Numbered from the stretch's first letter, positions 5,987 to 53,707 are shown. The stretch is DNA of 64,000 bases from Patescibacteria group bacterium (GCA_041661685.1 JBAZTY010000003.1:69550-133549), one strand, 5' to 3'. Notes: a model not told the origin generated them from the letters alone. Program-made: numbers and translations.

Positions 5987-7885
5987 TTATGCACTCGCTT
6001 CTTCCTGCCGGCTTTCATCGAATTCCTTCTTGGCTTCTTCGAGCTCAAGCAGCTGGCGCGGATCGGAAGTAATCAGCTGGTCTTCGGTGTAAGACGCGAC
6101 CGCTTTCATAGCCACGTGCTTATTGCCCGCGAAGAAAATGCCTTCGCCGACGCCGCATTCGAGCAACAGATATTTCTCACCTTCAGTTAGCATGAAAGTC
6201 TTCTGGATCAAGTCGATAGCCGCCGGAGACTGCTTAAATAATAATTGCAAAGAAGAATTATTAACGATCGCCTGGCCGTAAGGAGAGGTCAAGAAGTCAT
6301 TAACGTCCTGCGTAATAGTCGTGACGCCCAAATAATATTTACGGCAACGTTTAACGAGAGCGAAGATGAACTTAGCCGAATCTTCGTGCTGCATCATCCA
6401 CCAAGCTTCATCAATGACTAGGATGCGCTTCTTCATCTCGCTACGAACGACGTTCCAAATGTAATTGACGATAGTATAAATAGCAATCGGGCGGAGTTCG
6501 TCTTCCAAGTCGCGGACCGAGAAACAGACGAGCTGATTGCTCATCTCGACGTTAGTCTGGTTATTGAGTAAGCCGGCAAAAGTTCCTTCGGTAAACTTTC
6601 TTAAGCGCAGAGCCAGGTCAGACCCGCCTTCCATACCGTCTAGAATCTGCTCAAAATCGGCCATAATCGGAGCTTCAATCTTTGATAAGTCAGAGTCGGG
6701 AGTAATATCTTTCTTCGCGTAAGTTTCGAGTAACGCGCGATCAACGATAGAATCTTCGTCATAGCTCAGGTTGCCTAACATCAAGCGCACTAAGCCTTTC
6801 AAGGTAATAACGGCGCTGCGGATGATATCTTTGGGCTTGGCTTCTCCGCCGATAGAGCGCGGTAAATCGAACGGGTTAATCTTATTCTCAGAAGACAAGG
6901 AAATATTGATATAGGTGCCGCCGACCGCTTCCGCTAAATGCTTGTATTCATATTCCGGATCAATGACGATGACGTCGGTCCCGAGCATTAAGGAACGCAA
7001 AATTTCTAATTTGATAGCATAGCTCTTACCGGCGCCGGAGGTCGCAAAGACGACAGAGTTAGCATTCTGAAGGCTGAAGCGATCAAAAAGGATAAGGCTG
7101 TTATTATGGCGGTTAATGCCATATAAGATACCTCGGTCGCTCGTGAGTTCGCTGGAGATGAACGGGAAAGAAGAGGCAATTGGGGAAGAATTCATGTTGA
7201 AGGTAATATATAATTCATCGTCCCCTAAAGGCAGGGTGGAATTGAAGCCCTGTTCTGATTGATAATAAACGCGGCGGGAATAAACTAGGCGGGAGCCGAA
7301 AACATCCTCGACCTGATCGCTTAAACGGTCCAGATCTTCAAGTTTATCGGCATAGATGGTGACATACAAAGCGAATTGAAAAAATTTCTCCGTTCCCTGA
7401 GTAAGCGCATCGCGCAAGTATTCAATATCGCGCAAAGCAGTTTCGCGCAATGGGTCGCGGGCGGCTCCCTTCTCTGCGTCAGAAACGATCTGCGCTTCCA
7501 GGGCGCCGACTTTATTCTTAAGTTGCTTCAAGATAATCGCGCTCTTAACTTGATAGAAGAACATCGAGACATCAAAGGTCACGTTCAGATTGATAATCGG
7601 CGCGAACCAGCCGACGGAGATATAGCGCGGATAAGAGACGATGAAGATGGTGCGCAAGAATTTATTGCCCAAGGCGAGATGATTAGCCTCGACCTTGAGG
7701 CTAGCGGGCGCGATAATATCGCGGACGGATAAGACGCCGCGGCGGAAGGCCTTCTCTTCTTCGATGATTTCCCGAGTCAATTCCGGGTTCTCCTCGATTG
7801 GGTGCGCCACGGGCTTAACCCCGATGGTAATCGGGGTATTGAGGCCTATCTTGGCCTTTTCTTCTTTTTTGCTGAAATCAATCAT
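5987..7885 (-). CDS. virB4: VirB4/TrbE/TraC-family conjugative ATPase, ATPase portion; N-terminal domain is in the upstream in-frame ORF
   Basis: 632 aa. Walker A VVFATSGAGKSYAI and Walker B/DEAW-type ILVIDEAWWMM. Architecture of T4SS VirB4 ATPases. Confidence 0.75.
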   Translation of the reverse strand: MIDFSKKEEKAKIGLNTPITIGVKPVAHPIEENPELTREIIEEEKAFRRGVLSVRDIIAPASLKVEANHLALGNKFLRTIFIVSYPRYISVGWFAPIINLNVTFDVSMFFYQVKSAIILKQLKNKVGALEAQIVSDAEKGAARDPLRETALRDIEYLRDALTQGTEKFFQFALYVTIYADKLEDLDRLSDQVEDVFGSRLVYSRRVYYQSEQGFNSTLPLGDDELYITFNMNSSPIASSFPFISSELTSDRGILYGINRHNNSLILFDRFSLQNANSVVFATSGAGKSYAIKLEILRSLMLGTDVIVIDPEYEYKHLAEAVGGTYINISLSSENKINPFDLPRSIGGEAKPKDIIRSAVITLKGLVRLMLGNLSYDEDSIVDRALLETYAKKDITPDSDLSKIEAPIMADFEQILDGMEGGSDLALRLRKFTEGTFAGLLNNQTNVEMSNQLVCFSVRDLEDELRPIAIYTIVNYIWNVVRSEMKKRILVIDEAWWMMQHEDSAKFIFALVKRCRKYYLGVTTITQDVNDFLTSPYGQAIVNNSSLQLLFKQSPAAIDLIQKTFMLTEGEKYLLLECGVGEGIFFAGNKHVAMKAVASYTEDQLITSDPRQLLELEEAKKEFDESRQEEASA

Positions 7886-8591: not shown

Positions 8592-9011
8592 TTATTCTCC
8601 TTTATAGCGTCCTTTGGTATCAACGACGAGCGCCAATTCGGCCAAGCGCGATTTCTTATACATTTTCGGAGCGACTATCGGCGCGACGGCCTTGACTTCA
8701 ATATTCGTTTCGCCGATTTCAGCAGCCATGATCCGATTATTCCATACTCTTATTCCGGGACGGCGCAAAGTCTGAAAAGCATTAAGCATAAAGAGATGGA
8801 AGGGGCGGCCGTTTATCTTAACGAAGGCGAATAGAGCAGCAAAGACGAGCGTCACGATACCGACGGTCAAGAACAAGGTAAAATCGAACAACTTGTAACT
8901 GATGCCGATGATAACGGCAGCGCCGAGAATAATCATGAATTGGCGCACGGTCAGAGGGCCGATAATCTTATTTTCGACGTCGATGAATTGAGGAACGGTG
9001 AACTGCTGCAT
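8592..9011 (-). CDS. PrgI/VirB3-like small membrane protein of T4SS
   Basis: 139 aa. DVENKIIGPLTVRQFMIILGAAVIIG followed by two TM helices. Position immediately upstream of virB4 is typical for VirB3/PrgI. Confidence 0.5.
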   Translation of the reverse strand: MQQFTVPQFIDVENKIIGPLTVRQFMIILGAAVIIGISYKLFDFTLFLTVGIVTLVFAALFAFVKINGRPFHLFMLNAFQTLRRPGIRVWNNRIMAAEIGETNIEVKAVAPIVAPKMYKKSRLAELALVVDTKGRYKGE

Positions 9012-11475: not shown

Positions 11476-11546
11476 ATCATTATTATTTACTTATATTAAT
11501 ATTAGCATAAAATAACCAAAAAATGTAATTAATCAGACTTAAATTA

Positions 11547-11575: not shown

Positions 11576-11655
11576 ATTAGAAATATTTAGAACTTTAATA
11601 ACAAACAAATCACCTCATAAACCTCTGGTCCCGTAGTTAACGGGTCTATTACTCG

Positions 11656-12255: not shown

Positions 12256-12281
12256 ATGAACCGAATTAAAGAAATTAAAGA

Positions 12282-12310
12282 AACCGACACCAAAAGTGCC
12301 GGTTTTTTAT
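12282..12310. terminator. Bidirectional terminator between the histidine phosphatase gene and paralog A
   Basis: 9-bp stem AACCGACAC/GTGCCGGTT with one mismatch, followed by a T-run; preceded by an A-rich stretch. Confidence 0.5.
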
Positions 12311-12311
12311 T

Positions 12312-14207: not shown

Positions 14208-14251
14208 TAATTATTGTCTATAAGACAATATTATCACGGAAAATAATCCTG

Positions 14252-15838: not shown

Positions 15839-15851
15839 ATGTTTAGCAAAA

Positions 15852-21286: not shown

Positions 21287-22244
21287 CTACTTTCTGAGAT
21301 TTTTTAAGTTCTGATCTTTTGAAACGACTGATCTCCTGTGATATCGCCTTGTGTTCGAGACTGGATTCGGGATAATTTTTCAGGATATTCTCTAATTCAG
21401 TTAGCGTTGGGAATGGCCTAGTTTCTTGGGCGGGTTGAGACGTAGTTATAATAGGATGAGAAATACTAGGATTGAGATCAAATTGCTTATTAGCCAGTCC
21501 CGGTTCCAGAGTTCCAATATCAATATGCCTTATCTTATCAACACTAGCAATTTCTTCAATATTTCCATGATTAAAAATAATCGTTTTATCGTCTATATTC
21601 ATGACCACCGAATTATCATATCCCTCCGGAGTTTTAGAAGAAATTTTTAATTTTTCATAGATATCTAAAAGAATTTTTACTCTGTCCTTGTCCTTAGCAT
21701 CTAAAATCTTAATAAATTGGTTGTTGCTAAAATACTCAACCTTTTTAACCTTATCAAACTTATCTAGCCCTAAATTAGCAATAAAACTTTTTATCCATTC
21801 GTCCACTTTTCTGGGGATTTCTTGATTAACATATTTCTGCCGACTAATTAAAACGTTGTCGCATTTCTCTAGCGCTTCCCGCATTTTTGTTTTAAAGATA
21901 TCCCTCTCATTCAAATCGCTAATGGCGACAAGCTCCGTTTCTAATTTTCGCCAAAGATCAAATTGATCTATTTCCAAAGAAAGGGAAAAATAATTTTTTA
22001 ACAGATCAGCGCGTTCTTCGGTATCTTTTAAATAGTTAAAACCGATAAATTTAAACTTCATCAAGTAATTTTCGTACTGGGTGTATTCCGGACTATTCTT
22101 TAATATGCCCGACCGATCAAGCCAGTCTTTGACTAGATTATAGCTTTCAAAAGCATCCAAAAATTCGTTATTTGCCATAACGTAATCTATTTCCTGTTGT
22201 AGTAAATCGAGAGTTAATTTTGCCATATCTTTAAGAAACAACAC
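21273..22244 (-). CDS. Hypothetical protein
   Basis: 323 aa, acidic and helical, no recognisable motifs. Directly upstream of the VirB6-like gene. Confidence 0.4.
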   Translation of the reverse strand: MLFLKDMAKLTLDLLQQEIDYVMANNEFLDAFESYNLVKDWLDRSGILKNSPEYTQYENYLMKFKFIGFNYLKDTEERADLLKNYFSLSLEIDQFDLWRKLETELVAISDLNERDIFKTKMREALEKCDNVLISRQKYVNQEIPRKVDEWIKSFIANLGLDKFDKVKKVEYFSNNQFIKILDAKDKDRVKILLDIYEKLKISSKTPEGYDNSVVMNIDDKTIIFNHGNIEEIASVDKIRHIDIGTLEPGLANKQFDLNPSISHPIITTSQPAQETRPFPTLTELENILKNYPESSLEHKAISQEISRFKRSELKKSQKVDVKK

Positions 22245-24831
22245 CCCTTATAGCGCCCATAGGATTAGAAACATCATTCTTCTTACCTCCCTGGGCACAA
22301 ATCTTTCTAATAACTTTAGCTACTTCTACGGCGCCATTCTTTTCTAAGGCTTCGAGATTCTTTTCATTAGCGCCAATAAACCGAATAACATTAATATTAC
22401 CAGTCTTTTCTAAATCAGCAGCGTAAGCAGCGTCTTTTGAAGCGAACAGACTGATAGTAGAACGGCTGATATCCCAATGTTTAGAATCATGCGGTTCGCC
22501 ATTACGATAAGAACCGGCTCCTAAGCGATTAACAGACCTAACAAATTGCTGAACTTGAACTTTTGATTTTTCACTAAGAATAGCGGCTTCCTGTTCATCT
22601 TTGCCTGTTTCTTCCCATTTGCCAGCTTTATTCATGCTCATAGCGCCAAAAGCTTCAAAATGGTTAGAAGCCTTAGCCAGCTCCCCAACTTCAGCAATAA
22701 GCGCACGAGAATCCTGCTCGGTCATTCCGCCTGCTTTCTGTAAATGTTCAGACATTTTAATCATGCCATCATAGCCAGTGCCAATGCCTAAAGATCTGTG
22801 CAGATCATTATAATTCCCCGACTTAGCTAATTTCTTATAACAAGCCGCCATCAATCCTTCATCATGTTGCTCCTCCGCCTCTTTGAATATACCGACCAAT
22901 TGATCCGGATTAGAAAAATTGGCAATTTGTTTGCTTGCCTCGCCTTCCATTTTAGCGCTGATGGAGGCCCGCGCCGATTGCACCTCGGATAATTGATTTT
23001 TACGCAGAACATCGGCAAATTTAGCGATTTCTGCATCAGCGGCGTTAACCGCGCCAAGAGATTTATCTTTTTCTTTTTGATACTCCTCCAACTTAGCATC
23101 TTTAGCTATCTTATCAGAAACAACAATATTTTTACCGCTAAGAACATCTTTTTCTTCTAGGTTGCGGGCCATGGTATCATTAATCTTCTTAATGTCTGCT
23201 TTTTTCTTCACCAACTCTTTAGTTTCATCTTCGGTCAGGCTGCCCGCTTTTTCTTTACCGAGTAATTTTTTATAATCAGCGCTATCAACAATGGCCTTGC
23301 TATCTTCTTCCAATTTATAATTCTTTTTATTAATATCCTTAATCCTTTCTTTGTTATCTCTATCTTCTGCGGCCGTGACCACTTTACCAGATTCTAAATC
23401 AATTCTTCCTAACTCACCAGTAGCCGCCTTCTTCATATCTTCCTGGGCTTTAATCTTACCAAGATATTCTTTATTCTTGGCTGGCGAACCGGCATTGAAT
23501 TTCCTATCCATAATATTCTGCCAGGCGACGTCGCCGGTGCTTAAAAGAGCGGCTTTACGGCCAATCCATGTTTCACCCTCTTCCGCCTGCTTAAGAGTGC
23601 CTTTCCTAATTCTAGTTTGTCGTAACGCTCTATTATGTTCTACTTGTTCTCTTCTTCTTCTTTCTCCGGCCGCTAAATTCAAATCTACTCCTAATTTTTC
23701 ACTAGTCATATCTCTCAAGTCTCCGAGCTGTCTTCCGGTCCATTTACCTAGGCCCTTCCCGGCTCCAGTTATTTTCCCAGTCGCAAACGATGCCCCAGAA
23801 CTTATCTTGGACATCCCCTTCCCGGCCATGCTGCCGGCCGCGCCGCCGATCTCTTGAGATATCTTCAAGCCGCCGAGCAACATACCGATGGCGATGACGA
23901 ATTGGATAAGCGATGCCGGAGAAGACGCCTTAGTAGCTACCATAGCATTTGTACCCGAGGCGGTAGTATCTCCGATTGCCGACATTTCTGCCGCTACTTT
24001 CGTATTTACTGAGGTGTCTTGAGTGTAAGTCTGCAGAGCCGCAAAAGACAGCCAGATAAAAAAGGCTAAAACCGGACCGACAACGAGATTCTTAGTAAAC
24101 TCGCTCCACCACTGAGAAGCATATTTCTGTCCGCCCGGAAAAGCTGATAATAGATAAGCGGCCGGAGATAAGACGACATAAATCCAGATCATGACCAGGC
24201 GCATGACGAGCATCATCATCATGGTCACAATAACAACGACAGCGACCAGAAGATAAATAATTCCCAAGACATAAGCGCCAACAACCGTCCACAAGCTCAT
24301 GCTGCTATCATCTTTGGCCATGGTCACGATATTGCTCAGCCCTAGAATATCAGTCAGGTTAGCGCCGCCGACATCTTTAAAAGCGTTGACGAAAGTGAGC
24401 ATGACGACCTGCGCCGCGTCGATCATCAAACCGCAGATAGTCTTAGAAAAATTAATCAGCACGGCCATTAAAATCAATTTCGGCAGCCATTTCTTATAAC
24501 TATAGTTTTCTAAATGAAGAATTGTCCCGAAAGCGATGATGAGCAGAACGACCACAAAAAACATGTTACAAATATCGCGCACTATTACCCAGCCGAGCCT
24601 GACAGCGTCGGAGCCGATAAAATCCTGATATTGAGCAATAATAATCAGTCCTTTTATAACCAAAACTAAAATGACGCCGAGCGCCCAGATGAATACTCCG
24701 AGAATTCCACTAATGACGCTAACCGCCCAATCCGGGGCCGCCAGGACATTATGACCAAATAAAAAAATCCCGATTACGGCGATAAGCGGCAATATGGCAA
24801 ATAAAAATTTTTTATTGTTGATTGACTTCAT
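22231..24831 (-). CDS. Polytopic membrane protein, VirB6/TrbL-like (inference), with a C-terminal hydrophilic/coiled-coil extension of about 500 aa
   Basis: 866 aa. Signal-anchor, at least 6 predicted TM helices in the first 330 aa, a Gly/Ala/Ser-rich linker, then a long Lys/Glu-rich region. Confidence 0.4.
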   Translation of the reverse strand: MKSINNKKFLFAILPLIAVIGIFLFGHNVLAAPDWAVSVISGILGVFIWALGVILVLVIKGLIIIAQYQDFIGSDAVRLGWVIVRDICNMFFVVVLLIIAFGTILHLENYSYKKWLPKLILMAVLINFSKTICGLMIDAAQVVMLTFVNAFKDVGGANLTDILGLSNIVTMAKDDSSMSLWTVVGAYVLGIIYLLVAVVVIVTMMMMLVMRLVMIWIYVVLSPAAYLLSAFPGGQKYASQWWSEFTKNLVVGPVLAFFIWLSFAALQTYTQDTSVNTKVAAEMSAIGDTTASGTNAMVATKASSPASLIQFVIAIGMLLGGLKISQEIGGAAGSMAGKGMSKISSGASFATGKITGAGKGLGKWTGRQLGDLRDMTSEKLGVDLNLAAGERRRREQVEHNRALRQTRIRKGTLKQAEEGETWIGRKAALLSTGDVAWQNIMDRKFNAGSPAKNKEYLGKIKAQEDMKKAATGELGRIDLESGKVVTAAEDRDNKERIKDINKKNYKLEEDSKAIVDSADYKKLLGKEKAGSLTEDETKELVKKKADIKKINDTMARNLEEKDVLSGKNIVVSDKIAKDAKLEEYQKEKDKSLGAVNAADAEIAKFADVLRKNQLSEVQSARASISAKMEGEASKQIANFSNPDQLVGIFKEAEEQHDEGLMAACYKKLAKSGNYNDLHRSLGIGTGYDGMIKMSEHLQKAGGMTEQDSRALIAEVGELAKASNHFEAFGAMSMNKAGKWEETGKDEQEAAILSEKSKVQVQQFVRSVNRLGAGSYRNGEPHDSKHWDISRSTISLFASKDAAYAADLEKTGNINVIRFIGANEKNLEALEKNGAVEVAKVIRKICAQGGKKNDVSNPMGAIRGVVS

Positions 24832-35241: not shown

Positions 35242-35282
35242 AATAATCAAACTAAACCAAAAATGGTTTTTGATTATTTTTA

Positions 35283-36137
35283 TTATACCATAAACGGTTT
35301 CAAAGCCGCAAATAATTTTTGCCAATCTTCAAGGAATAAATCTTCGGCCCGAGCGGCATTTTTTATCCCTGCCTTAATCAATGTATCTTCAATGGCTTTC
35401 GGCTCGACTCTGAGGCCGGCGGCCAGATTATTCTTGAGCATTTTCCGCTTAGAACTGAAGCCGATCTTCACTATCCTGAAAAAATCTTTATCGGCTTTCG
35501 TGTCAAAAGGCTGAGGCTTGAGATCTATCCTGATAACAGCGCTATCAACCTTTGGCTCCGGCCAAAAATTTCCGGCTTTAACCTCGCGGATAATCTTCGG
35601 AGCGGCATAATACTGGACGGAAAGCGCTAAGACACTCATCTCCGGCGGCGCGGCGGCGATACGTTCGGCCACTTCTTTCTGAAGCATCAGGATAAGCGCT
35701 TCCGGCTTATGTTCAGAGGTTAAAAAACGGCGCAAAAAGATAGAAGTAATATTATAAGGCAGGTTAGCGACAATCTTGTATTTCAAGGGCAAATCCAGCT
35801 TCTTAAAATAAGCTTCCAGATTAAAATCTAAAATATTCTCGTTAATTATAGCAACGTTTTCAATTCCCTGTGAATCAATGCCAGTCTGGAGATACTCGGC
35901 TAATTTATTATCCAGTTCGACGGCCACTACCTGTTTAACTTTAGCCGCCAGCTTAGCGGTCAAAAAACCTAAGCCTGGACCAACTTCAAGCACAATATCA
36001 TCCGGCTTCAGGTCGGCCGCTTTAATGATGTCGTCATAAATCTTTTCATTAATTAAAAAATTCTGACCCTTGGATCGCGCCGGCTTAATTTCAAAGATGT
36101 GACAGATTTCTCTAGTTTTCGCTAATAGATCGGACAT
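35283..36137 (-). CDS. rsmA: 16S rRNA (adenine1518-N6/adenine1519-N6)-dimethyltransferase
   Basis: 284 aa. SKGQNFLIN...LEVGPGLGFLT SAM-binding motifs of KsgA/RsmA. Confidence 0.85.
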   Translation of the reverse strand: MSDLLAKTREICHIFEIKPARSKGQNFLINEKIYDDIIKAADLKPDDIVLEVGPGLGFLTAKLAAKVKQVVAVELDNKLAEYLQTGIDSQGIENVAIINENILDFNLEAYFKKLDLPLKYKIVANLPYNITSIFLRRFLTSEHKPEALILMLQKEVAERIAAAPPEMSVLALSVQYYAAPKIIREVKAGNFWPEPKVDSAVIRIDLKPQPFDTKADKDFFRIVKIGFSSKRKMLKNNLAAGLRVEPKAIEDTLIKAGIKNAARAEDLFLEDWQKLFAALKPFMV

Positions 36138-38946: not shown

Positions 38947-39728
38947 TATGACAATTCCAATACGATAGGCGCGTGGTCGGAACCGGTTATTTTATCTAAG
39001 ATATAAGCTTTTTTCAGGCTTCTTCTAAGTTTAGCGGACACGCAGAAATAGTCAATCCGCCAGCCGATATTCCGCACGCGGGCGTTCATCCGGAAGCTCC
39101 ACCAAGAATATTGAACTTTCCGGCCATTTTTCTCTCTAAAAGTATCGACAAAGCCGGCTTGCAAAAGTTTAGTCATCCAGTCGCGTTCTTCCGGCGTAAA
39201 ACCGGCGCTGCCTTCGTTCTCTTTCGGTCGTGCCAAGTCGATTTCTTCATGGGCGACATTAAAATCGCCGGTGATAACGACTGGTTTAGACTTTTCTAAT
39301 TTTTTAATATATTTCAGCAAAGTTTCATTGAACTCCAGCTTATAGCCCAAACGCGATAATTCATGATTAGAATTAGGAAAATAAACGTTCAACAAGAATA
39401 ATTTTCCAGTTTCCAGGGTCTGAACGCGGCCCTCCTTATCGAATTTGGCCAAGCCGAAACCGTTCTTGACGCTCTTAATTTTCAAGCCTTTCGCTCCGCC
39501 TAAACCCTCGCGGGCTAAGATGGCCGTGCCGCTATAGCCCGGACGTTCAGCGCTATTCCAATATTCCGTATAACCGGCAAAATCGAATTCTGTCAGCAAG
39601 CGCGCGGAATCGGAAATCTTTATCTCCTGCAAGCATAAGATATCCGGTTTTTCGGATCGTAAAAAATCTTTAAAACCCTTCTTGGCGACCGCTCTGATTC
39701 CGTTAACATTCCAGGAGATTATTTTCAT
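38946..39728 (-). CDS. xth: Exodeoxyribonuclease III (AP endonuclease)
   Basis: 260 aa. MKIISWNVNGIRA...LCLQEIK N-terminus and the conserved C-terminal SDHAPI motif. Confidence 0.85.
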   Translation of the reverse strand: MKIISWNVNGIRAVAKKGFKDFLRSEKPDILCLQEIKISDSARLLTEFDFAGYTEYWNSAERPGYSGTAILAREGLGGAKGLKIKSVKNGFGLAKFDKEGRVQTLETGKLFLLNVYFPNSNHELSRLGYKLEFNETLLKYIKKLEKSKPVVITGDFNVAHEEIDLARPKENEGSAGFTPEERDWMTKLLQAGFVDTFREKNGRKVQYSWWSFRMNARVRNIGWRIDYFCVSAKLRRSLKKAYILDKITGSDHAPIVLELS

Positions 39729-39734
39729 AGATTA

Positions 39735-39743
39735 TGATATAAT
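39735..39743 (+). promoter_or_regulatory. Extended -10 promoter element (TGaTATAAT) upstream of the DsbA-like/por operon
   Basis: TG-n-TATAAT at 39735-39743, about 50 nt upstream of the proposed start at 39793. Confidence 0.35.
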
Positions 39744-39792
39744 ACAATTATACTGGAAACAGCGCTTAGTTTCAATTTTTTATAATAATCAT

Positions 39793-40539
39793 ATGGGTTT
39801 AGAAGAACGAGTGAAGTACGCGGCCATGAAGGCGCGGCACAAAAAATTATTGCTTCCTTGGTATAAGAAATGGTGGGGTATAGTCATTATGGTCTTGGCC
39901 GGATTATTGCTCATAATCCTGACCATTTCCAGTCTTTACGTGATCAGCAAAGCCAAAGAGATTATCGCTGGGCAGAACCAAGGAGTGACTGAGCAGGACT
40001 ATAAGATTTACGCGCAGAATATCAAAGGAGACGGCACTAATTTTTTTATCGGCACGACTACGCCGCAAGCAACTATCGTAGAATTTGGAGATTTCGCCTG
40101 CCCCTATTCTAAGGAATCATACCTCGCCATCAAGCAAGTCCTGGCCGATTATCCGGATAAAATAAAAATAGTCTGGCGCGATTATCTGCGCAATGAAGAT
40201 TCTATCGATCTCGCGGTCGCGGCTCGCTGCGCCGGCGCTCAAGGAAAATTCTGGGAAATGCACGATAAGCTGTTCGAAGACCAAGAAAATCTAACGACAG
40301 CCGATGAAGCGCGCTTGAATCGTTTAGTGGCTCTCGCCGTCAGTCTAGGGATGAACGATACGGAGTTCGCGACTTGTCTGACTAATCGCGATGATTTAGC
40401 AAAAATCCAGAAAGATTACGAAGACGGTAACACTCTGGCGATTATCGGCACTCCGACTTGGTTCGTCAATAACTATCCTATCTCTGGCGCCCTAACTCTT
40501 GATAAATTCAAGGAGTTATTGAGCGGCATCATTAAATAA
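39793..40539 (+). CDS. DsbA-like thioredoxin-fold protein with a CxxS (CPYS) active-site motif; N-terminal membrane anchor
   Basis: ORF 39682..40539; start placed at the internal MGLEERVKY to avoid a 46-nt antisense overlap with xth. TM helix WWGIVIMVLAGLLLIILTI, then a DsbA-like domain with FGDFACPYS. Confidence 0.6.
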   Translation: MGLEERVKYAAMKARHKKLLLPWYKKWWGIVIMVLAGLLLIILTISSLYVISKAKEIIAGQNQGVTEQDYKIYAQNIKGDGTNFFIGTTTPQATIVEFGDFACPYSKESYLAIKQVLADYPDKIKIVWRDYLRNEDSIDLAVAARCAGAQGKFWEMHDKLFEDQENLTTADEARLNRLVALAVSLGMNDTEFATCLTNRDDLAKIQKDYEDGNTLAIIGTPTWFVNNYPISGALTLDKFKELLSGIIK

Positions 40540-40559: not shown

Positions 40560-41105
40560 ATGGAACAGATCCGCATACATGGACGCGGCGGGCAAGGCGT
40601 CGTCACGGCCGCCGAGCTTATCGCTATTGCCGCTTTTTATGAGGGGAAAGAAGCACAGGCCTTCCCTAATTTCGGCGTGGAACGAACGGGTGCGCCGATC
40701 CAATCCTACGCGCGCATCTCTGATGCGCGCATCGTGACGCGCGAGCAGATTTCTGAGCCGACCGTACTGATCATCCAGGATGCGACCTTATTAGACACGG
40801 TCGACGTCTTCTCTGGCAGCACGCCGGAAACCGTCGTCATCATCAACGCGCCGGAAAATAAATGGCCGGAACTCAATAAGAGATTTAAACATTTATATTT
40901 TACGCCGGCGACTGAAATTGCCATGAGAATATTCGGCAAGAATATTATCAACACTGTTATCCTCGGCGCTTTTGCCAAACACACGAAATTAGTCAGCCTT
41001 GATTCTCTGAAAAAAGCGGTTACAGAAAAATTCGGCGATAAGGGCGCGGCGATAATCGAAAAGAATATCCAAGCGATTACCGAGGATTACGAAAGAGCAG
41101 AATAA
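40560..41105 (+). CDS. porC: Pyruvate/2-oxoacid:ferredoxin oxidoreductase gamma subunit
   Basis: 181 aa. MEQIRIHGRGGQGVVTAAELIA is the typical POR gamma N-terminus. Confidence 0.85.
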   Translation: MEQIRIHGRGGQGVVTAAELIAIAAFYEGKEAQAFPNFGVERTGAPIQSYARISDARIVTREQISEPTVLIIQDATLLDTVDVFSGSTPETVVIINAPENKWPELNKRFKHLYFTPATEIAMRIFGKNIINTVILGAFAKHTKLVSLDSLKKAVTEKFGDKGAAIIEKNIQAITEDYERAE

Positions 41106-41132: not shown

Positions 41133-41411
41133 ATGAAAAATAAAAAGATAAATCTTATAACCCAGCCGAATACGACTCTAGCCAACAAGACCGGAGCTTG
41201 GCGCACGGAAAAACCGATTACCGATTTATCGGCCTGCATCGGCTGTTCTTTATGCGCGAAAATCTGCCCCGAGGGCTGCATCGAAATGGAAAAGAGCGTC
41301 GCTCATGGCGATAAGCTCAAGCCGGAGACGGATTATGACTACTGCAAAGGCTGCGGTCTCTGCGCCCATGAATGCCCGGTCAAGGCAATTAAGATGATCA
41401 AAGATTATTAA
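41133..41411 (+). CDS. porD: Pyruvate:ferredoxin oxidoreductase delta subunit (2x[4Fe-4S] ferredoxin)
   Basis: 92 aa with two CxxCxxCxxxCP clusters (CIGCSLCAKICP and CKGCGLCAHECP). Confidence 0.85.
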   Translation: MKNKKINLITQPNTTLANKTGAWRTEKPITDLSACIGCSLCAKICPEGCIEMEKSVAHGDKLKPETDYDYCKGCGLCAHECPVKAIKMIKDY

Positions 41412-41412
41412 T

Positions 41413-42609
41413 ATGACAAAAAAAAATCATAAACAAATACTAGAAGGCTCGCACGCCATTGCGCTCGTGGTCAAAAACATCGGCCCGGCGGTCGTGTCCG
41501 CTTATCCGATCACGCCGCAGACCCATATCGTCGAGGATCTCGCCAAAATAAAAGCCGACGGTCAAGCCGATTATGAATATGTCCGCGCCGAAAGCGAATT
41601 TGCGGCCGCTTCGATCATCCTCGGAGCGAGCGCCGCCGGTTCTCGCGTCTATAGCGCGACTAGTTCCCAGGGCTTATTGCTCATGGCTGAAGTCGTTTAT
41701 AATATTTCAGGCATGCGCCTGCCGATAGTCATGACGACCGCCAACCGCGCAATTTCAGGTCCGATCAATATCTGGAACGACCACAGCGACGTGATGGCTG
41801 TCCGCGATGCCGGCTGGATCCAATTATTCGCGGCCAATCATCAAGAGGCGGTTAACGCTCATATCCTCGCTTATAAGCTGGCCGAAAAATTAAGCCTACC
41901 GGTAATGGTCAATGTCGACGGCTTTATTTTGACTCACTCTTATGAATCAGTTATCATCCCCGAGCCGGAAAAGATAAAAGAATTTTTACCGGCCTACCAG
42001 CCGGAAAATGGGACTTATCTCGATCCTAAAAATCCGGTCACGCTCGGCGCTTTCTTTACCCCGGCAGATTATATGGAAACACGTGAAGCCTTGCATGTTG
42101 ATTTGTTAGCTAGCCTAGAGACGATCAAGAAAGAATATAAATTATTCCAAAAGATATTTAAAGACGAAACTAAATTAGCGGAAGTGTCTAATCAAAAAGA
42201 TATTTTTGACGACGGTCTGGCAGAATATTACGGCCCGGCTAAGCCGGAGACTATTCTGGTCGCGCTCGGATCGATGAACGGCACGATCCTCGAAACTATC
42301 AAGGATATAAAAAACGTCGGACTCTTAAAAATAAAAGTCTATCGCCCCTTCCCTGTCGAAACGATCAATAAAATCATCATTCGCGCCAAGAATATCGCCG
42401 TCATCGAAAAAGCGATTAATTTCGGCCAGACTGGTCCGCTCTATTCCGATATTAAGTCTGGGCTGAGCGGCGCAGAAGCGAAGAATCTGAATATCACAAA
42501 TTACGTCGTCGGTCTCGGCGGCCGCGACGTCACTAAGAAGATGATCCAGAAAATAATTAAGAAGGCCTCGCGCCGCGACCAGGCAGTAGAGTTCATTGGC
42601 CATAACTAA
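41413..42609 (+). CDS. porA: Pyruvate:ferredoxin oxidoreductase alpha subunit
   Basis: 398 aa. Typical PorA N-terminal domain (YPITPQT...) and length. Confidence 0.85.
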   Translation: MTKKNHKQILEGSHAIALVVKNIGPAVVSAYPITPQTHIVEDLAKIKADGQADYEYVRAESEFAAASIILGASAAGSRVYSATSSQGLLLMAEVVYNISGMRLPIVMTTANRAISGPINIWNDHSDVMAVRDAGWIQLFAANHQEAVNAHILAYKLAEKLSLPVMVNVDGFILTHSYESVIIPEPEKIKEFLPAYQPENGTYLDPKNPVTLGAFFTPADYMETREALHVDLLASLETIKKEYKLFQKIFKDETKLAEVSNQKDIFDDGLAEYYGPAKPETILVALGSMNGTILETIKDIKNVGLLKIKVYRPFPVETINKIIIRAKNIAVIEKAINFGQTGPLYSDIKSGLSGAEAKNLNITNYVVGLGGRDVTKKMIQKIIKKASRRDQAVEFIGHN

Positions 42610-42621: not shown

Positions 42622-43587
42622 ATGAAAGTAAAAAGACCAAAAATATTAGGGGCTATGAAGATATCTTTCTTCATCGCTCTTTGCCTACAGCTAACGATAT
42701 CTTTCGCTTTAGCGGCTTGGCCGACCAAGGTCTCAGCGCAAATTAACCCCCAACCTTTACAATTTGAACCACAAATTCAGATTCCTAATTCCGCTTTCAG
42801 CGCCACTTCTGTCTCTGTGGCCACTCTCGACACTAAAACTGGAATGTTTAATAGCGACCTACTCGCTAAATATATCCAGGCTTTTTATAACTATGGGATG
42901 GCGGTCGTCGGAATATTAGCGGCGATAGTGCTTATGGCCGGAGGCGTCCTCTGGCTCACTTCCGGCGGTGATTCCGGAAAAGTCGGCCAGGCTAAAGAAC
43001 TAATCATCGGCAGTATCGTCGGCACGGGCATCCTGTTCAGTTCTTGGATAATATTAAACACAGTTAATCCAGAACTTTTAAAATTTAAACCGATTAAGAC
43101 GCTGTCTGTACAGCAAAGAATGTTCGGCGACACGGTCTGTTGTGATCAAGACGCAGGGGAAAAAAGATTTGTTTTAACCACTAACAAAGACGGAAAAAGA
43201 GTTTATGCTTCTGACCCAAGCAAATTATTTCTAGGTTGTAACGATGCCTTTGGAAAACCTGAAATTTCACTTGGAACTAGAGAATGCCCCACTTCTGGTG
43301 CAACCACCGCCTGTCTCTACACTTCTGATGGCCTTCTAGAGTCAGGAACATATAAATGTGTTGATACTAGCGATATCTGCTGTCAATGTAGAACCACTCT
43401 TTTAGGTGTTATTACGTCTGCTTCATGTTATGATCACGCTAAATCTATGCAGGATTGCGAAGATTGGTGTCATCTTGGCTGGGGTTACGCCATAGTTGGA
43501 ATTGGCTACCAAACGCTTGACTACCCCGGAGAATATACCTGCGGTTCAAGGGCTACTTACAATTATTGTTCCGCGCCTCAATATTAA
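42622..43587 (+). CDS. Secreted Cys-rich protein with a VirB2/TrbC-like two-helix membrane hairpin (paralog 1), inserted between porA and porB
   Basis: 321 aa. Signal peptide; conserved block YIQAFYNYGMAVVGILAAIVLMAGGVLWLTSGGDSGKVGQAKELIIGSIVGTGILFSSWIIL (helix, Gly/Lys loop, helix). C-terminal region of about 150 aa with about 14 Cys. Confidence 0.5.
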   Translation: MKVKRPKILGAMKISFFIALCLQLTISFALAAWPTKVSAQINPQPLQFEPQIQIPNSAFSATSVSVATLDTKTGMFNSDLLAKYIQAFYNYGMAVVGILAAIVLMAGGVLWLTSGGDSGKVGQAKELIIGSIVGTGILFSSWIILNTVNPELLKFKPIKTLSVQQRMFGDTVCCDQDAGEKRFVLTTNKDGKRVYASDPSKLFLGCNDAFGKPEISLGTRECPTSGATTACLYTSDGLLESGTYKCVDTSDICCQCRTTLLGVITSASCYDHAKSMQDCEDWCHLGWGYAIVGIGYQTLDYPGEYTCGSRATYNYCSAPQY

Positions 43588-43599
43588 AATTTAATAAAT

Positions 43600-44478
43600 A
43601 TGATAGAGAATACTAAATCAAAAAAATTCCTTGCTCCCGGACATAATGCCTGTGCCGGTTGCGGCCAATTATCAGCGGCTCAATCAGTGATGAGGGGCTT
43701 GAATGAAAACGTCATTATTGCTAATGCTACCGGTTGCTTAGAAGTGACGACGACCGCTTATCCGCAAAGTTCCTGGGGCCTGCCGTTCATCCATTCTCTT
43801 TTTGAAAATGCGGCCGCAGTCGCGTCCGGAATCCTGGCATCTCTAAAACAAAAAGGCGATACAAAAACTAAAGTCGTCGTTCAAGCCGGCGACGGCGGAA
43901 CGTTCGATATCGGCATCGGGCTGGTCAGCGGCATGTGGGAACGCGGCGAGAACATCTTATATATCTGCTATGACACCGAAGCTTATTCTAATACCGGCTA
44001 TCAAGCTTCCGGCAGCACCCCTTACGGCGCCAATACGACGACGACGCCGAACGGTTCCGCTTCCGTCGGATCAACTCAAAGAAAAAAAGACATGCTAGGA
44101 ATAGCTTTAGCCCATGGCTTAAGATATGTCGCCCAGACGACCGCCGGCTTTCCTGATGATATCACTAATAAGGTCAAAAAAGCTTTGACCATTGAGGGTC
44201 CGAGCTATATTCAGATCCTCTGCCCTTGCATCCCTTACTGGAAAATACAAAATGACCAAGCGATCTCAATGGGAAAACTAGCTGCTCAAACCGCTCTTTA
44301 CCCTCTCTTAGAATATATTGACGGTCGATTAGTTTCTTCCAGCATCAAAGAAGGCTTCCAAGTTAAGCCAGCCGCAGAATACTTGAAGAGCCAGGGGCGT
44401 TTCAAGCATCTCAAAGACGAAGATATCGCTTTGATAGAAAAGATCGGGAGCGAAAATATCACTAAATATAAAATATGA
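43600..44478 (+). CDS. porB: Pyruvate:ferredoxin oxidoreductase beta subunit (TPP-binding)
   Basis: 292 aa. GHNACAGCGQ...ATGCLEV and a TPP-binding GDGG motif. Confidence 0.85.
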   Translation: MIENTKSKKFLAPGHNACAGCGQLSAAQSVMRGLNENVIIANATGCLEVTTTAYPQSSWGLPFIHSLFENAAAVASGILASLKQKGDTKTKVVVQAGDGGTFDIGIGLVSGMWERGENILYICYDTEAYSNTGYQASGSTPYGANTTTTPNGSASVGSTQRKKDMLGIALAHGLRYVAQTTAGFPDDITNKVKKALTIEGPSYIQILCPCIPYWKIQNDQAISMGKLAAQTALYPLLEYIDGRLVSSSIKEGFQVKPAAEYLKSQGRFKHLKDEDIALIEKIGSENITKYKI

Positions 44479-45716
44479 AGAGAACTAAAAATCTTATTTT
44501 AATAATAAGCTCGTTCTTCGTTCTTTTACCTTTGTTTTCGGTCAGAGCGGCTGATAATTGTTTTTGGTCAATAATCGTGAATTCTTCTCCAAAAAGCTCG
44601 GAATCGATGTGCGACGCTCCGGGCGAATCTTATTTTTTCGCAGACAGCTCCGGCATAAGCTGCGAAGGAAAGGAAAAAGAAACTTATGATAAAATTTGCT
44701 GCTGCCAAATTAAGGACAGGCCAGGCCAATGCTTAATCAGCCAAAAATGTCCCAATGATTTACCTTGCATCGACGGTTATTGCAAAGAACCGATTGTTAA
44801 TTCTGTGCCAGTTACTCAAACAGCAAAATTTGTAATGCCGATACTACAAATTAAAATTCCGGGCTTAGAAGAATTCAACAATAATGAATTATGTACAAAG
44901 GATGGCCGTTGCGGAATTCCTTGGCTCGCACAATACATCAGGGCAATCTATAATTACGCTATCGCGGTTGCCGGCATATTGGCCGCCATCGTTCTAATGG
45001 CTGGCGGAGTAATCTGGCTAATCTCTGGTGGCGATTCTTCTAAAGTGACTCAAGCCAAAGAATTGATATTCGGGAGCATTAGCGGCTTAGTAATTTTAGC
45101 CTCCTCATATATCCTCTTAACTCAAATAAACCCCGACTTGGTCACCCTTAAAACAATCGATTTAATCCAAGTCCGCAGACTTGATTTTCTCCAAAACGGC
45201 AGTGAAAGTTTTTCTAATTCCTCCAACCGCAGACCATGCCCGACAGATAACAATCTGGTTTCTATCTCTAATATAGTTAGCAGCTCTGCTAGCGACCCCC
45301 GGCTCGACCCGAGAGACGCGGAAGGATTAAAAAAAGCCGTCGCTATTGCCGACCAACAAAAAGTAAAACTACAGGTGACTTCTGCTTTCCGGAGCTATGA
45401 CCTGCAAAAAACCTTATGGGATGCAGCTTTAAAAAATAACAACAACGACGTAGCCAAAGCCGGTTTATATGTGGCGCCACCGACTCAATGCGAAGGGCTT
45501 AACTGCTATGGCCATTGCGCCGGAGCAGCAATTGATGTCTGTATCGCTGGTAGCGTTTCCTGTTCCCATATCGGCGGAAATGAAAACGCTAAGTACAGCG
45601 ATGATGACGTTATAAAACTGGAAAAAATTATGCAATTAGCCGGCTGGACCAGATATTGCAACGAATGGTGGCATTATCAATATAGCCTAACCCCCGGTAT
45701 TGCCTGCTCTCCATAA
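44475..45716 (+). CDS. Secreted Cys-rich protein (paralog 2): VirB2/TrbC-like membrane hairpin fused to a C-terminal peptidase M15 (VanY-like D,D-carboxypeptidase/LAS) domain
   Basis: 413 aa. Signal peptide, a 12-Cys N-terminal region, and a hairpin block about 65% identical to paralog 1 (YIRAIYNYAIAVAGILAAIVLMAGGVIWLISGGDSSKVTQAKELIFGSISGLVILASSYILL). C-terminal motifs SAFRSYDLQ, HCAGAAIDV and NEWWH match the Zn-ligand motifs of M15 peptidases. Confidence 0.55.
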   Translation: MKRTKNLILIISSFFVLLPLFSVRAADNCFWSIIVNSSPKSSESMCDAPGESYFFADSSGISCEGKEKETYDKICCCQIKDRPGQCLISQKCPNDLPCIDGYCKEPIVNSVPVTQTAKFVMPILQIKIPGLEEFNNNELCTKDGRCGIPWLAQYIRAIYNYAIAVAGILAAIVLMAGGVIWLISGGDSSKVTQAKELIFGSISGLVILASSYILLTQINPDLVTLKTIDLIQVRRLDFLQNGSESFSNSSNRRPCPTDNNLVSISNIVSSSASDPRLDPRDAEGLKKAVAIADQQKVKLQVTSAFRSYDLQKTLWDAALKNNNNDVAKAGLYVAPPTQCEGLNCYGHCAGAAIDVCIAGSVSCSHIGGNENAKYSDDDVIKLEKIMQLAGWTRYCNEWWHYQYSLTPGIACSP

Positions 45717-51715: not shown

Positions 51716-53707
51716 TTAAGCGCTTAAGATTATGCGGACATCTCCGGCGGACACGCCTTTCTCAAAAACGAAAAGCGGATTAATATCGAATTCGGAAATT
51801 TCCGGATGCTCGTTAGCGAGTTTAGCCAGTTTGACGATAGTCTGAGCTAAGGCGTTGATATCATATTTCTTCTGGCCGCGCGCGCCATTTAAAATTGGGT
51901 ATATCTTCAGGCTGGCGATAAGCTTAATCGCCCCGGCCAGATCGATATCGCTGATAGCTAATTTAAAGTCTTTCATCACTTCCGTATAGATTCCGCCCCA
52001 GCCGACCATGAGCAGCGGGCCGAAAACAGCATCGCGCTTGAAACCTAAAATTATTTCCTGGAATCTATTCGCCTGTTCTTGGACGACTAGATAATTCTCC
52101 GGGTTCTTGAACGCCCAGGCGTTCTTCTTAGCTAATGATTCAGCCATCGCTTGTAATTGCGCTTCATCTTTCAGATTAACGACGACGCCGCCGGAATCAG
52201 TCTTATGTAAGAAATCCGGGCCAACTGTCTTCAAGACTGCCGGATATCTATAACTCTGCAATTTCGCTTCTTCATAGCGCAAGCTTTTTACGGCCGGAAT
52301 ATTATAACTCTTCAATAAGGAGAAAGCCTGAAGATAGTCGCCATTCTTAACCGTCCTCTTTGCTGTAATGCCCGTATTCTTAAAAGGCTTGAGGTTTTTG
52401 ACTAAAGAGCGATAAGCAATGAGATGTCTAAAACTGCGCACCGCTTCTTCGGGATAATCAAAAGACGGAATCTGATTCTCTGATAATAATTTCCGAGGAG
52501 CCGCGACGGCTTCTCCTCCGACGAAGCTCGTCATGATTAATTTATTCGGATATTTTTTCTTAACCGCAATGATAGCTTGCGCAGTTTTCATTGGCTCGGT
52601 TGAAGTCTGCGGCGTTAAGAGGACTAAAAGATTATTTATTTTCTTATCAGCTAAGGTCTTATTCAATGCCGTTTCATAACGAGCGGCATCGGCATCGCCT
52701 AATAAATCTTGGCTTGTCCCCAGGGGCACTCCTTGGCGGCTAATTTCATCAGCGGTCAAAACGGCTACGCCGCCGGCATTAGTGATGACATGAAGTTCCG
52801 GAGATCCGGTATTAAACCAGGATTTCTTATCAAAAATCATTAAGAGATTAAACATGTCTTCGAGATTATCCAGCCAGATTGCTCCAGCTCTTTCTACGCC
52901 CGCTTTGACGGCCGCAGCCGAACCGGCCAATGACCCCGTATGCGACATCGCCAATTTTCCTCCAGCCGCGCTGGTGCCCGCTTTCAGGATAGCCACCGGC
53001 TTGCGTTTGGCTAAGCGCGAAATTATTTCCATGAAGCGGCCGCCGTCCTTCATTTCTTCGAGATAAGCGATAATCAAATCGATTTTTTTATCGGCTGCTA
53101 AATATTCGATGATCTCATTTTCATCCAAAACTGCTTTATTGCCGAGAGAAATGAAATAACCGAAATTAAAATCCTTAATCTTTAGCCAATCAAGCGCACC
53201 CGCGCCGATAGCGCCGGACTGCGACAATAAAGCGCAATTGCCGGATTCAGTATCAGCAGCGGCAAAAGTCGCATTTAATTTATGCCAAGTATTGATAAGA
53301 CCTAAACAATTCGGACCGAGGATGTTCAGATGATGACGAGAAGCGATTTCCTTGATATCCGCTTCTAGCTTCTTCCCTTCTTCGCCCGCCTCCTTAAAAC
53401 CGGCCGTGATGATGATGATATTCTTGATGCCTAAAGAGGCGCAATTCTTTACTTCCGCTACGACAAAAGGCGCCGGAATAGAAATAACGACTAAAAGCCC
53501 GGCCATTTCCGCGTGCGGCAAAGCCGCTAGATTCGGATAAGCTTTCAGCTTAGCGATCTTCTTCTCTTTCAGATTAATCGGATAAACGCGGCCCTTGAAG
53601 CCGCCCTTGATGATATTATCGAGAATCTGACGGCCCAGCTTTTCCGGACTATTCGAAGCGCCGACGACCGCGACTGAACGCGGATTGAAAAAATTATTCA
53701 GAGACAT
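51716..53707 (-). CDS. Acetyl-CoA synthetase (ADP-forming), fused alpha/beta subunits
   Basis: 663 aa. N-terminal CoA-binding domain (NPRSVAVVGASNSPEKLG), succinyl-CoA-synthetase-like central domain and ATP-grasp C-terminal domain. Confidence 0.75.
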   Translation of the reverse strand: MSLNNFFNPRSVAVVGASNSPEKLGRQILDNIIKGGFKGRVYPINLKEKKIAKLKAYPNLAALPHAEMAGLLVVISIPAPFVVAEVKNCASLGIKNIIIITAGFKEAGEEGKKLEADIKEIASRHHLNILGPNCLGLINTWHKLNATFAAADTESGNCALLSQSGAIGAGALDWLKIKDFNFGYFISLGNKAVLDENEIIEYLAADKKIDLIIAYLEEMKDGGRFMEIISRLAKRKPVAILKAGTSAAGGKLAMSHTGSLAGSAAAVKAGVERAGAIWLDNLEDMFNLLMIFDKKSWFNTGSPELHVITNAGGVAVLTADEISRQGVPLGTSQDLLGDADAARYETALNKTLADKKINNLLVLLTPQTSTEPMKTAQAIIAVKKKYPNKLIMTSFVGGEAVAAPRKLLSENQIPSFDYPEEAVRSFRHLIAYRSLVKNLKPFKNTGITAKRTVKNGDYLQAFSLLKSYNIPAVKSLRYEEAKLQSYRYPAVLKTVGPDFLHKTDSGGVVVNLKDEAQLQAMAESLAKKNAWAFKNPENYLVVQEQANRFQEIILGFKRDAVFGPLLMVGWGGIYTEVMKDFKLAISDIDLAGAIKLIASLKIYPILNGARGQKKYDINALAQTIVKLAKLANEHPEISEFDINPLFVFEKGVSAGDVRIILSA

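Follow-up and report, generated by a model that had tools for sequence, protein, structure and literature searches.

The window analysed here is a stretch of 64,000 nucleotides from a Patescibacteria group bacterium (GCA_041661685.1, JBAZTY010000003.1:69550-133549), which derives from a 370-kb metagenome contig; window coordinates are used throughout. The bacterium is an ultrasmall member of the Falkowbacteria, within the candidate phyla radiation. Open reading frame (ORF) calling identified a cluster of seven plus-strand genes between 39.7 and 45.7 kb in the order dsbA-porC-porD-porA-P1-porB-P2 (Table 1). The four por genes encode the subunits of a 2-oxoacid:ferredoxin oxidoreductase (Por). 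P1, in slot 1 between porA and porB, and P2, in slot 2 after porB, encode two predicted secreted proteins in which a hairpin of a type IV secretion system (T4SS) pilin family is joined to cysteine-rich domains and, in P2, to a peptidoglycan peptidase domain.

The genes are separated by gaps of 20, 27, 1, 12 and 12 bp, in order, and porB and P2 overlap by 4 bp. A terminator and promoter scan revealed no convincing internal terminator in the cluster, while its promoter-like matches are uninformative for this phylum. All four por subunits (gamma, delta, alpha and beta) are present and intact according to Pfam, but the contiguous C-D-A-B order of a porCDAB operon is not preserved, with a pilin gene splitting porA from porB. 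A preliminary description of the window, made from the DNA alone, had proposed two extra genes within a por operon; ORFs were found exactly at the positions proposed, and Pfam confirmed all four por subunits. A convergent RNase H gene lies 61 bp downstream of P2. No immunity-like gene adjoins P2, the next gene being this RNase H gene, and the same holds at four related loci (L004, L005, L007 and L009).

Table 1. Features of the por-pilin cluster and of the T4SS genes in the window (window coordinates; aa, amino acids; pLDDT, predicted local distance difference test; HMM, hidden Markov model; GA, Pfam gathering score)
Feature	Coordinates	Strand	Evidence
DsbA-like membrane-anchored thioredoxin, first in cluster	39682..40539	+	Thioredoxin_4 80.6 bits, DSBA 60.2 bits (Pfam)
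porC, gamma subunit of 2-oxoacid:ferredoxin oxidoreductase	40560..41105	+	Pfam POR 139.5 bits
porD, delta subunit, two 4Fe-4S clusters	41133..41411	+	Pfam Fer4 families
porA, alpha subunit	41413..42609	+	Pfam POR_N 239.8 bits, PFOR_II 72 bits
P1 (slot 1), 321 aa: signal peptide, short N-segment, PF18895 hairpin, Cys-rich beta head	42622..43587	+	
P1 hairpin core, aa 80-152: lead-in helix, first transmembrane helix, SGGDSGKVGQAKE loop, second transmembrane helix	42859..43077	+	70% identical to P2 aa 150-222
P1 head, aa 163-321: 14-Cys beta-rich domain, fold family without known relative	43108..43584	+	
porB, beta subunit, binding thiamine pyrophosphate (TPP)	43600..44478	+	Pfam TPP_enzyme_C 68.5 bits
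P2 (slot 2), 413 aa: signal peptide, Cys-rich N-domain, PF18895 hairpin, VanY/LdcB-type M15 peptidase	44475..45716	+	
P2 N-terminal Cys-rich domain, aa 26-115, 10 Cys	44550..44819	+	model pLDDT <55
P2 hairpin core, aa 150-222	44922..45140	+	purpose-built hairpin HMM 138 bits
P2 M15B (VanY/LdcB-like) zinc peptidase domain, aa 250-413	45222..45713	+	model pLDDT >90
VirB4-like T4SS ATPase, presumed partner machinery	5987..7885	-	P-loop_TraG 98.5 bits, AAA_10 40.9 bits
PrgI/VirB3-like T4SS protein	8592..9011	-	PrgI 36.7 bits (GA 27)
Possible VirB6/TrbL-like polytopic 866-aa protein, weak	22231..24831	-	TrbL 17.4 bits, below GA 25.9

Hairpin, topology and outer domains of P1 and P2

The core of both proteins matches the curated Pfam family PF18895 (T4SS_pilin), with 34.8 bits for P1 (aa 81-147) and 29.6 bits for P2 against a gathering score of 26.6, and the matches span profile positions 4-70 of 71. 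The family is also matched by 57 of 58 slot-2 and 75 of 80 slot-1 orthologues from the related loci described below. PF18895 has been treated as a VirB2-like pilin of Patescibacteria, where it was recorded in 1,948 assemblies, often as arrays of 2-11 genes, and near virB4 in 1,135 of them (PMC12102498). In Southlakia epibionticum an array of such pilins, encoded in the T4SS locus, is essential (PMC10633639; PMC12857230). Judged from their profile matches, P1 and P2 are members of PF18895 and appear VirB2-like in architecture; homology to VirB2/TrbC is not claimed.

P1 and P2 are 53% identical over 118 aa (BLASTP, E 6e-32), and identity rises to 70% over a 73-aa core, close to the roughly 65% over about 70 aa given in the preliminary description. 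No long DNA repeat was found between the two genes or at their junctions. This suggests that the similarity has been held at the protein level by selection and that P1 and P2 are old paralogues. The absence of such repeats likewise leaves no sign of gene conversion or of a mobile element.

Hydropathy analysis and AlphaFold both recovered the expected arrangement of a signal peptide followed by two hydrophobic helices. The hydrophobic segments of P1 are aa 8-35 (the N-terminal signal), 85-116 and 126-146, and those of P2 are aa 4-27 (the N-terminal signal), 155-187 and 196-216. In the AlphaFold models, which were built on homologue alignments, the corresponding helices (80-113 and 118-148 in P1, 150-183 and 188-218 in P2) form antiparallel hairpins with a pLDDT of about 85, compared with 75.5 for the whole P1 model. 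Cleavage of the signal peptides is predicted from sequence. An ordinary signal anchor can be excluded, since each protein has a separate signal peptide in addition to the two helices and matches a curated pilin HMM above its cut-off.

Public gene calls start P1 at Met12 (310 aa) and P2 at Met45 (369 aa), which in P2 leaves out the region 44475-44606. The Met45 start drops the signal peptide, so P2 would look cytoplasmic in automated annotation. The 413-aa start is more likely because it overlaps the porB stop codon, as it does in relatives.

Mature VirB2 and TrbC proteins are small (about 70-120 aa) and have no added globular domains, whereas P1 and P2, at 321 and 413 aa, carry added domains of 90-165 aa. 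Neither the P1 head nor the P2 N-domain gave a Pfam match, even at E<=1. Both are dense in cysteine, as the preliminary description had noted for the C-terminal extension of P1 and the N-terminal extension of P2: there are 14 cysteines in the P1 head and 10 in the P2 N-domain, and P2 has a further two just before the hairpin and eight in its VanY region. Every predicted extramembrane segment of P1 and P2 contains an even number of cysteines. Across orthologues, the slot-1 heads have a median of 18 cysteines and the count is even in 96% of them. This parity, together with the requirement that a wall enzyme be outside the cell, strongly suggests that both ends of the proteins are extracellular. 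Given a cleaved signal peptide and the even cysteine counts, N-out/C-out would be the only consistent topology, with the SGGDSxKVxQAKE loop inside. The Cys-rich beta head of P1 is probably a binding module.

The DsbA-like protein encoded at the start of the cluster has the active site CPYS (CxxS). Most orthologues have CPYC or CPFC, and CxxS also occurs in the closest relatives, L010 and L011. It is odd to find a monothiol DsbA ahead of genes whose secreted products are so rich in cysteine.

The C-terminal domain of P2 is an M15 peptidase. Residues 276-403 match VanY (PF02557) with 34.3 bits against a gathering score of 25, and Foldseek matched the modelled domain to solved structures of LdcB (4mph, 4jid, 4ox3), VanXYc (4oak, 4mus) and VanY (5hnm, 6a6a) with E values from 6e-7 to 3e-5. 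For 4mph, 4jid, 4oak, 5hnm, 6a6a and 4ox3 the Foldseek probability was 1.00 and the target template modelling score was 0.5-0.59. The lytic endopeptidase Ply500 also belongs to this fold family (Foldseek rank 16). The motifs SxxRS, HxxGxAxD and EWWH had been named in the preliminary description as marks of an M15 domain, and both Pfam and Foldseek confirmed the assignment. The substrate-binding R306 (SxxRS), the zinc ligands H347 and D354 (H-x6-D), and the catalytic E397 and further zinc ligand H400 (EWWH) are invariant in 22 homologues, and the motifs align to those of LdcB and YodJ, which indicates that the zinc site and catalytic residues of P2 are intact. The structural model contains the full M15 residue set, zinc ligands included, at a pLDDT above 90.

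Conserved stem and swappable heads in related loci

Related loci were collected in two scans. The first searched species-representative genomes with the window PorB and returned 80 loci with PorB identities of 59-90%, whose titles are mostly Candidatus Falkowbacteria or Patescibacteria. The second took the most distant PorB (from the BM507 genome) as its centre, searched metagenome contigs and contributed 32 further loci in which porA and porB are both present. Single loci are cited by number (L010 and so on).

Homologues of P2 keep the signal peptide, the Cys-rich N-domain and the hairpin, while their C-termini vary between VanY/M15, Peptidase_M15_4, Amidase_2, Peptidase_C39_2, NlpC/P60 and 3D domains. 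Among 58 proteins encoded after porB, Pfam identified heads of the types VanY (12), 3D (8), C39_2 (4), M15_4 (3), NlpC/P60 (3) and SLT_3 (2). Some head-cluster representatives score just below the Pfam cut-offs, and clustering of the slot-2 heads by BLAST gave 26 3D-like, 21 M15, four C39-like, three NlpC/P60 and two SLT_3-like heads; the M15 total comprises 20 heads in two clusters and one M15_4 singleton. In all, 35 head clusters were obtained by BLAST clustering of 138 proteins. The slot-2 heads that could be identified thus belong almost entirely to peptidoglycan-active families, and the slot-1 heads are mostly Cys-rich and without enzymatic signature.

Conservation is much higher in the hairpin than in its flanks. 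Median identity to the window copies is 54-55% for the hairpin, 63% for PorA and 44% for DsbA, but the N-domain of P2 was recognised by BLAST in only three of 57 slot-2 orthologues and a P1-type head in none of 79. Nor does the type of head follow PorB relatedness. The window has a VanY head, the loci at 90% (L010) and 84% (L011) PorB identity have 3D heads, the locus at 85% (L012) has the other M15 type, and VanY heads recur at PorB identities of 70-79%.

The clearest case is a pair of proteins, P0019 and P0020, which are 90% identical over aa 1-231, with the first 60 residues identical, and have no similarity thereafter. One continues into an NlpC/P60-like head and the other into a C39_2 head. 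The break falls approximately 10-15 residues past the INPxL motif that closes the hairpin. The pair combines a conserved N-terminal part with unrelated C-terminal heads, the pattern by which polymorphic toxins are recognised. Differently headed genes also occur in tandem: L090 has M15_4, VanY and a head of no known type, and L013, L020 and L025 have two heads each. Such tandem copies mean that differential loss may add to the head pattern alongside recombination. The hairpin is the conserved stem of these proteins, and the outer domains are swappable heads.

The por interruption and the type IV secretion context

In an ORF and BLAST census of the loci with both porA and porB, a hairpin gene lay between the two in 69 of 69 (one gene in 58 loci and two in 11). 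P2 had served to find four of these loci, which makes them a biased sample; the remaining 65 are free of this bias. The interruption is also present in all 32 loci added by the BM507 scan, giving 101 of 101 loci with one or two pilin genes between porA and porB. No uninterrupted por operon turned up in either scan, whether centred on the window PorB or on the BM507 PorB, which gives only a lower bound for the age of the interruption. The arrangement goes back to the ancestor of the entire Falkowbacteria-type clade. The preliminary description had spoken of inserted genes, which implied a recent event; with an arrangement that is clade-wide and syntenic, a recent insertion or a mobile element can be ruled out.

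The surroundings are conserved as well. The genes leuS, exoIII and dsbA lie upstream, RNase H, recJ, lepA and murJ lie downstream, and the whole 20-kb neighbourhood is syntenic; the position of dsbA ahead of porC is conserved in relatives. Of 61 loci that reach the downstream RNase H gene, 50 also carry one or two hairpin genes after porB. In the BM507 subclade (L102-L181) this post-porB slot is usually empty, and a hydrolase-headed gene (3D or Amidase_2), if present, is the second of those separating porA from porB. A move or duplication from this inner slot is thus suggested as the origin of the post-porB gene in the window subclade.

Several loci depart from the common form. At L074 an inversion of the dsbA-porC-porD block has left porA-pilin-porB-pilin together as a unit. 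A 523-aa ORF at L060 (4395-5966) runs from the N-terminal half of PorA into a pilin hairpin, and at L066 (2266-4467) PorA is a 733-aa ORF that contains two PorA segments; these may be true fusions or assembly or frameshift errors. Many of the metagenome-assembled genomes with the locus (L013, L015, L018, L019 and others) are titled 'uncultured Gammaproteobacteria', and one is titled 'Thermoplasmatales archaeon', which are mislabels. An ADP-forming acetyl-CoA synthetase gene (CoA_binding, Succ_CoA_lig, ATP-grasp_5) lies 6 kb downstream of the cluster in the window (51716-53707, minus strand). Together with Por it would give a route from pyruvate to acetate and ATP, and por is therefore probably a core, constantly expressed operon.

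T4SS genes are found elsewhere in the window (Table 1). The preliminary description had placed parts of a T4SS-like system at 5.3-9.0 kb and at 22-25 kb: Pfam identified VirB4 and PrgI in the first region, while in the second the only match, to TrbL, remained below the cut-off. recG and radA adjoin virB4 in the window, as in published ABY1 T4SS loci, which include both genes. The neighbourhood recG/radA/VirB4/226-aa ORF/PrgI (951-9011) is the same as at L101 (13347-21971). A purpose-built hairpin HMM found no hairpin pilins other than P1 and P2 in the 64-kb window, and the small ORFs in the surroundings of VirB4, PrgI and the VirB6-like protein do not encode hairpin pilins. No recognisable VirB1-like wall hydrolase was detected with Pfam near VirB4 in the window. 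Most Patescibacteria genomes with VirB2 homologues have no recognisable VirB1, and it has been suggested that other hydrolases might fill this role (PMC12102498).

Three contexts outside Falkowbacteria connect the hairpin genes with T4SS genes. On a 259-kb contig (L101, GCA_964400625.1), dsbA, a pilin-VanY gene (656 aa), a pilin gene (446 aa) and radA follow each other on one strand, and recG, three unannotated genes, VirB4 and a TraC-like gene follow on the opposite strand. L099 has dsbA, a pilin-VanY gene (648 aa) and radA, and at L098 VirB4 and a 1135-aa gene are followed by PF18895 proteins of 495 and 404 aa. The dsbA and pilin-VanY blocks of L099 and L101 are without por genes. The genes for a DsbA, a VanY-headed pilin and a second pilin therefore form a module, which lies in a T4SS neighbourhood elsewhere and is spread through the por operon in Falkowbacteria. 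The T4SS link, a guess in the preliminary description, thus gains comparative support from the block beside radA-recG-VirB4 at L101 and from the long pilins after VirB4 at L098.

Three further parts of the window are of note. A giant 2741-aa ORF (26313-34538, minus strand), whose only match is a weak one to CBM_4_9, may be a T4SS-associated surface protein; an interval of approximately 1.5 kb that holds two small ORFs separates it from the VirB6-like gene. A membrane-anchored 252-aa protein (34567-35325, minus strand) with a TSP3_bac calcium-binding repeat is a candidate surface protein. A PPDK_N gene (10537-11475, minus strand) and a tandem set of three paralogues (12312-14207, 14252-15838 and 15852-17363) are approximately 0.8 kb apart, with two small plus-strand ORFs in the gap; the only Pfam match in the paralogues is the PEP-utilizers mobile domain, and the region 10537-17363 looks like a split, expanded pyruvate-phosphate-dikinase-like set.

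Possible function and comparison with known systems

The explanation we favour, with a little more confidence than doubt, is that P1 and P2 are specialised PF18895 T4SS pilins in which the hairpin stem carries interchangeable wall-cutting or binding heads for the T4SS. It builds on the domain identities, the catalytic residues, the topology-consistent cysteines, the clade-wide synteny, the head swapping and the T4SS linkage in other genomes; incorporation into a pilus, enzyme activity and the target of P1 and P2 are its predicted parts. A cleavable signal peptide would direct both proteins to Sec for export, and each would insert into the membrane as a hairpin of two helices whose ends both lie outside the cell. 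The short SGGD-x-x-K-x-x-QAKE loop would then lie on the cytoplasmic side, or line the lumen if the hairpin is part of a pilus. The outer domains would be stabilised by disulfides, with a DsbA-like gene at the head of the same operon. P2 would present a Zn-dependent M15B peptidoglycan peptidase and P1 a Cys-rich beta domain. The hairpin would dock to, or co-assemble with, T4SS machinery encoded elsewhere (VirB4 and PrgI at 6-9 kb, the VirB6-like protein at 22-25 kb), and the heads would act where the machine or pilus crosses the peptidoglycan, P2-type heads supplying a VirB1-type wall-cutting function. Embedding in the por operon would most likely reflect co-transcription with a constitutive fermentation operon rather than a biochemical tie to pyruvate oxidation.

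Several observations weigh against this explanation. The preliminary description had likened the hairpin to VirB2/TrbC pilins. The pilin assignment stands, with PF18895 matched above its cut-off in both proteins, so that the hairpin is neither unrelated to pilins nor a plain signal anchor, but the more specific likeness is weak. Neither P1 nor P2 matches PF04956 (TrbC/VirB2) at E<=0.1, and only one of 80 slot-1 orthologues does so (E 0.0055). The alignment of the hairpin profile to five annotated plasmid VirB2/TrbC proteins is collinear through the lead-in helix, the first transmembrane helix, a conserved Trp and the second transmembrane helix, but it is weak (hhalign probability 31%, E 5e-4), and no PDB sequence was matched at E<=10 by a profile of the 80 full-length slot-1 proteins (alignment A2). 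There is no direct evidence of any PF18895 protein polymerising, and with domains of 100-190 aa at each end the hairpin may be too large to pack into a helical filament of the VirB2 type. It is as likely to serve as a minor or tip subunit, or in a purely membrane-anchored role at the base of the T4SS, as to form a fully decorated pilus. In this genome P1 and P2 lie approximately 35 kb from virB4, outside the T4SS cluster. The CxxS site of the window DsbA-like protein weakens the link to oxidative folding in this organism, where disulfide formation may depend on something else. LdcB and VanY, the closest folds to the P2 head, trim stem peptides as carboxypeptidases and do not open the wall. Finally, since the whole neighbourhood is conserved, the interleaving with por may be conserved passively and says little on function.

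The wall on which the heads act, the host's or the cell's own, separates the alternatives. The preliminary description had offered both a host-wall-remodelling device and a VirB1 equivalent of the T4SS, and either may fit the present observations. A partner-facing role is favoured by the hypervariability of the surface modules and the turnover of heads; the lack of an immunity-like gene and a fold of the trimming type speak for the cell's own wall as the target. A sharper form of the favoured explanation takes the first side: polymorphic effectors whose hairpins polymerise into, or cap, an extracellular T4SS pilus would open the host wall for attachment or for uptake of nutrients or DNA, and their turnover would reflect differing host wall chemistries or an arms race. 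The stem and swappable head layout is typical of polymorphic toxins, the head classes are very diverse, the N-domains and P1-type heads are hypervariable, and differently headed genes are arrayed in tandem (L090, L013, L020, L025). Patescibacteria are epibionts for which the T4SS and its pilins are essential for growth on hosts. However, P2 has no immunity-like gene beside it, only RNase H 61 bp away, the nearest folds (LdcB and VanY) are trimming rather than lytic, and loss from ancestral tandem arrays could partly mimic swapping. Moreover, no pilus is known from this group, nor is any host of Falkowbacteria. We regard host attack as possible but doubtful. An 'enzymatic pilus', in which a VirB2-like stem with cutting and Cys-rich binding heads bores through the host wall, with new heads gained by recombination at the stem-head junction as hosts change and expression tied to the main energy-yielding operon (pyruvate:ferredoxin oxidoreductase), strikes us as unlikely.

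On the second side, the hairpin could be a mere anchor for an ecto-enzyme, P2 being a housekeeping LdcB/VanY carboxypeptidase of the cell's own wall and P1 an unrelated surface protein, with no tie to the T4SS. LdcB-type enzymes of Gram-positive bacteria are membrane-anchored and act in wall maturation, and the fold matches. The window also contains murJ and a Mur ligase gene, the distance to virB4 is large here, and an immunity gene is absent. A generic anchor, however, would not be expected to keep a near-invariant loop and 54-70% identity while its flanks turn over, nor would an essential enzyme be expected to be swapped for other bond specificities or to be absent from 11 of 61 loci, and at L101 the dsbA-pilinVanY-pilin block adjoins the VirB4 region. 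This makes a plain autolysin quite improbable. That the hairpin proteins tether or regulate pyruvate:ferredoxin oxidoreductase at the membrane, so that the interruption was never lost, would fit its presence in 101 of 101 loci and the intact porA-pilin-porB-pilin unit at L074 despite the inverted dsbA-porCD, but is rejected as highly implausible: only the approximately 10 residues of the loop would face the cytoplasm, the added domains are Cys-rich or wall-active and hence extracellular, the same module occurs without por genes at L099 and L101, and the syntenic 20-kb neighbourhood makes passive conservation sufficient.

The domain-level description given here is secure, and we put forward the functional reading as a well-motivated hypothesis. 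T4SS and VirB2-like pilins are essential in the one genetically tractable Patescibacterium, and the locus suggests that the missing T4SS wall hydrolase of one large lineage is built onto pilin paralogues. Head turnover would, if the favoured explanation is true, be the first polymorphic-effector logic on a VirB2-type pilin. If the proteins were instead ordinary anchored autolysins, PF18895 would be a general ecto-enzyme anchor, which would change how counts of 'pilins' in the candidate phyla radiation are read. The universal interruption of porA/porB is a clean synapomorphy of the clade and a puzzle of co-expression.

The PF18895 family, its multiplicity and the presence of T4SS in Patescibacteria are already known. 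In the searchable literature we found no pilins with wall-hydrolase heads, no cassette replacement of heads on a pilin stem, no dsbA linkage, and no por-pilin linkage or universal porA/porB interruption in one lineage. The nearest relatives are the patescibacterial PF18895 arrays (Southlakia epibionticum; Quinonero-Coronel et al. 2025), which belong to the same family and have a signal peptide and hairpin; the genome described here likewise has VirB4, PrgI and VirB6-like genes. P1 and P2 differ in adding large domains, including hydrolases swapped between species, and in their location approximately 35 kb from virB4, interleaved with porCDAB behind dsbA.

VirB1 (Agrobacterium), PrgK (pCF10) and TraG (pIP501) are wall cutters dedicated to a T4SS, the Gram-positive ones combining SLT and CHAP/NlpC domains with a membrane anchor. 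Relatives carry heads of such classes (3D, SLT_3-like and NlpC/P60) in the slot of P2. By contrast, the head of P2 itself is an M15 metallopeptidase without SLT, CHAP or NlpC, its anchor is a pilin hairpin rather than a simple transmembrane helix, and its gene lies outside the T4SS cluster here. Compared with LdcB, VanY and VanXYc (MEROPS M15B), the P2 head has the same fold and the same SxxRS, H-x6-D and E-x-x-H motifs, but it is only about 23% identical, has extra conserved Cys pairs and follows a Cys-rich N-domain and a pilin hairpin in the same polypeptide.

In evolved VgrG, Hcp and PAAR proteins of the type VI secretion system (T6SS), such as VgrG-3 of Vibrio cholerae, a structural subunit carries an interchangeable C-terminal effector that is often a wall hydrolase. 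The resemblance, which is the nearest analogy to the locus, is one of principle only, as the proteins are unrelated, the machine is another and the immunity genes of T6SS wall effectors are absent here. Polymorphic toxins (CdiA-CT, Rhs and LXG) likewise have a conserved N-terminal delivery part, a sharp junction and tandem, differently headed copies. The proteins described here differ from them in having no immunity genes, in carrying wall-hydrolase heads rather than nucleases or pore-formers, and in using a pilin hairpin as the delivery part.

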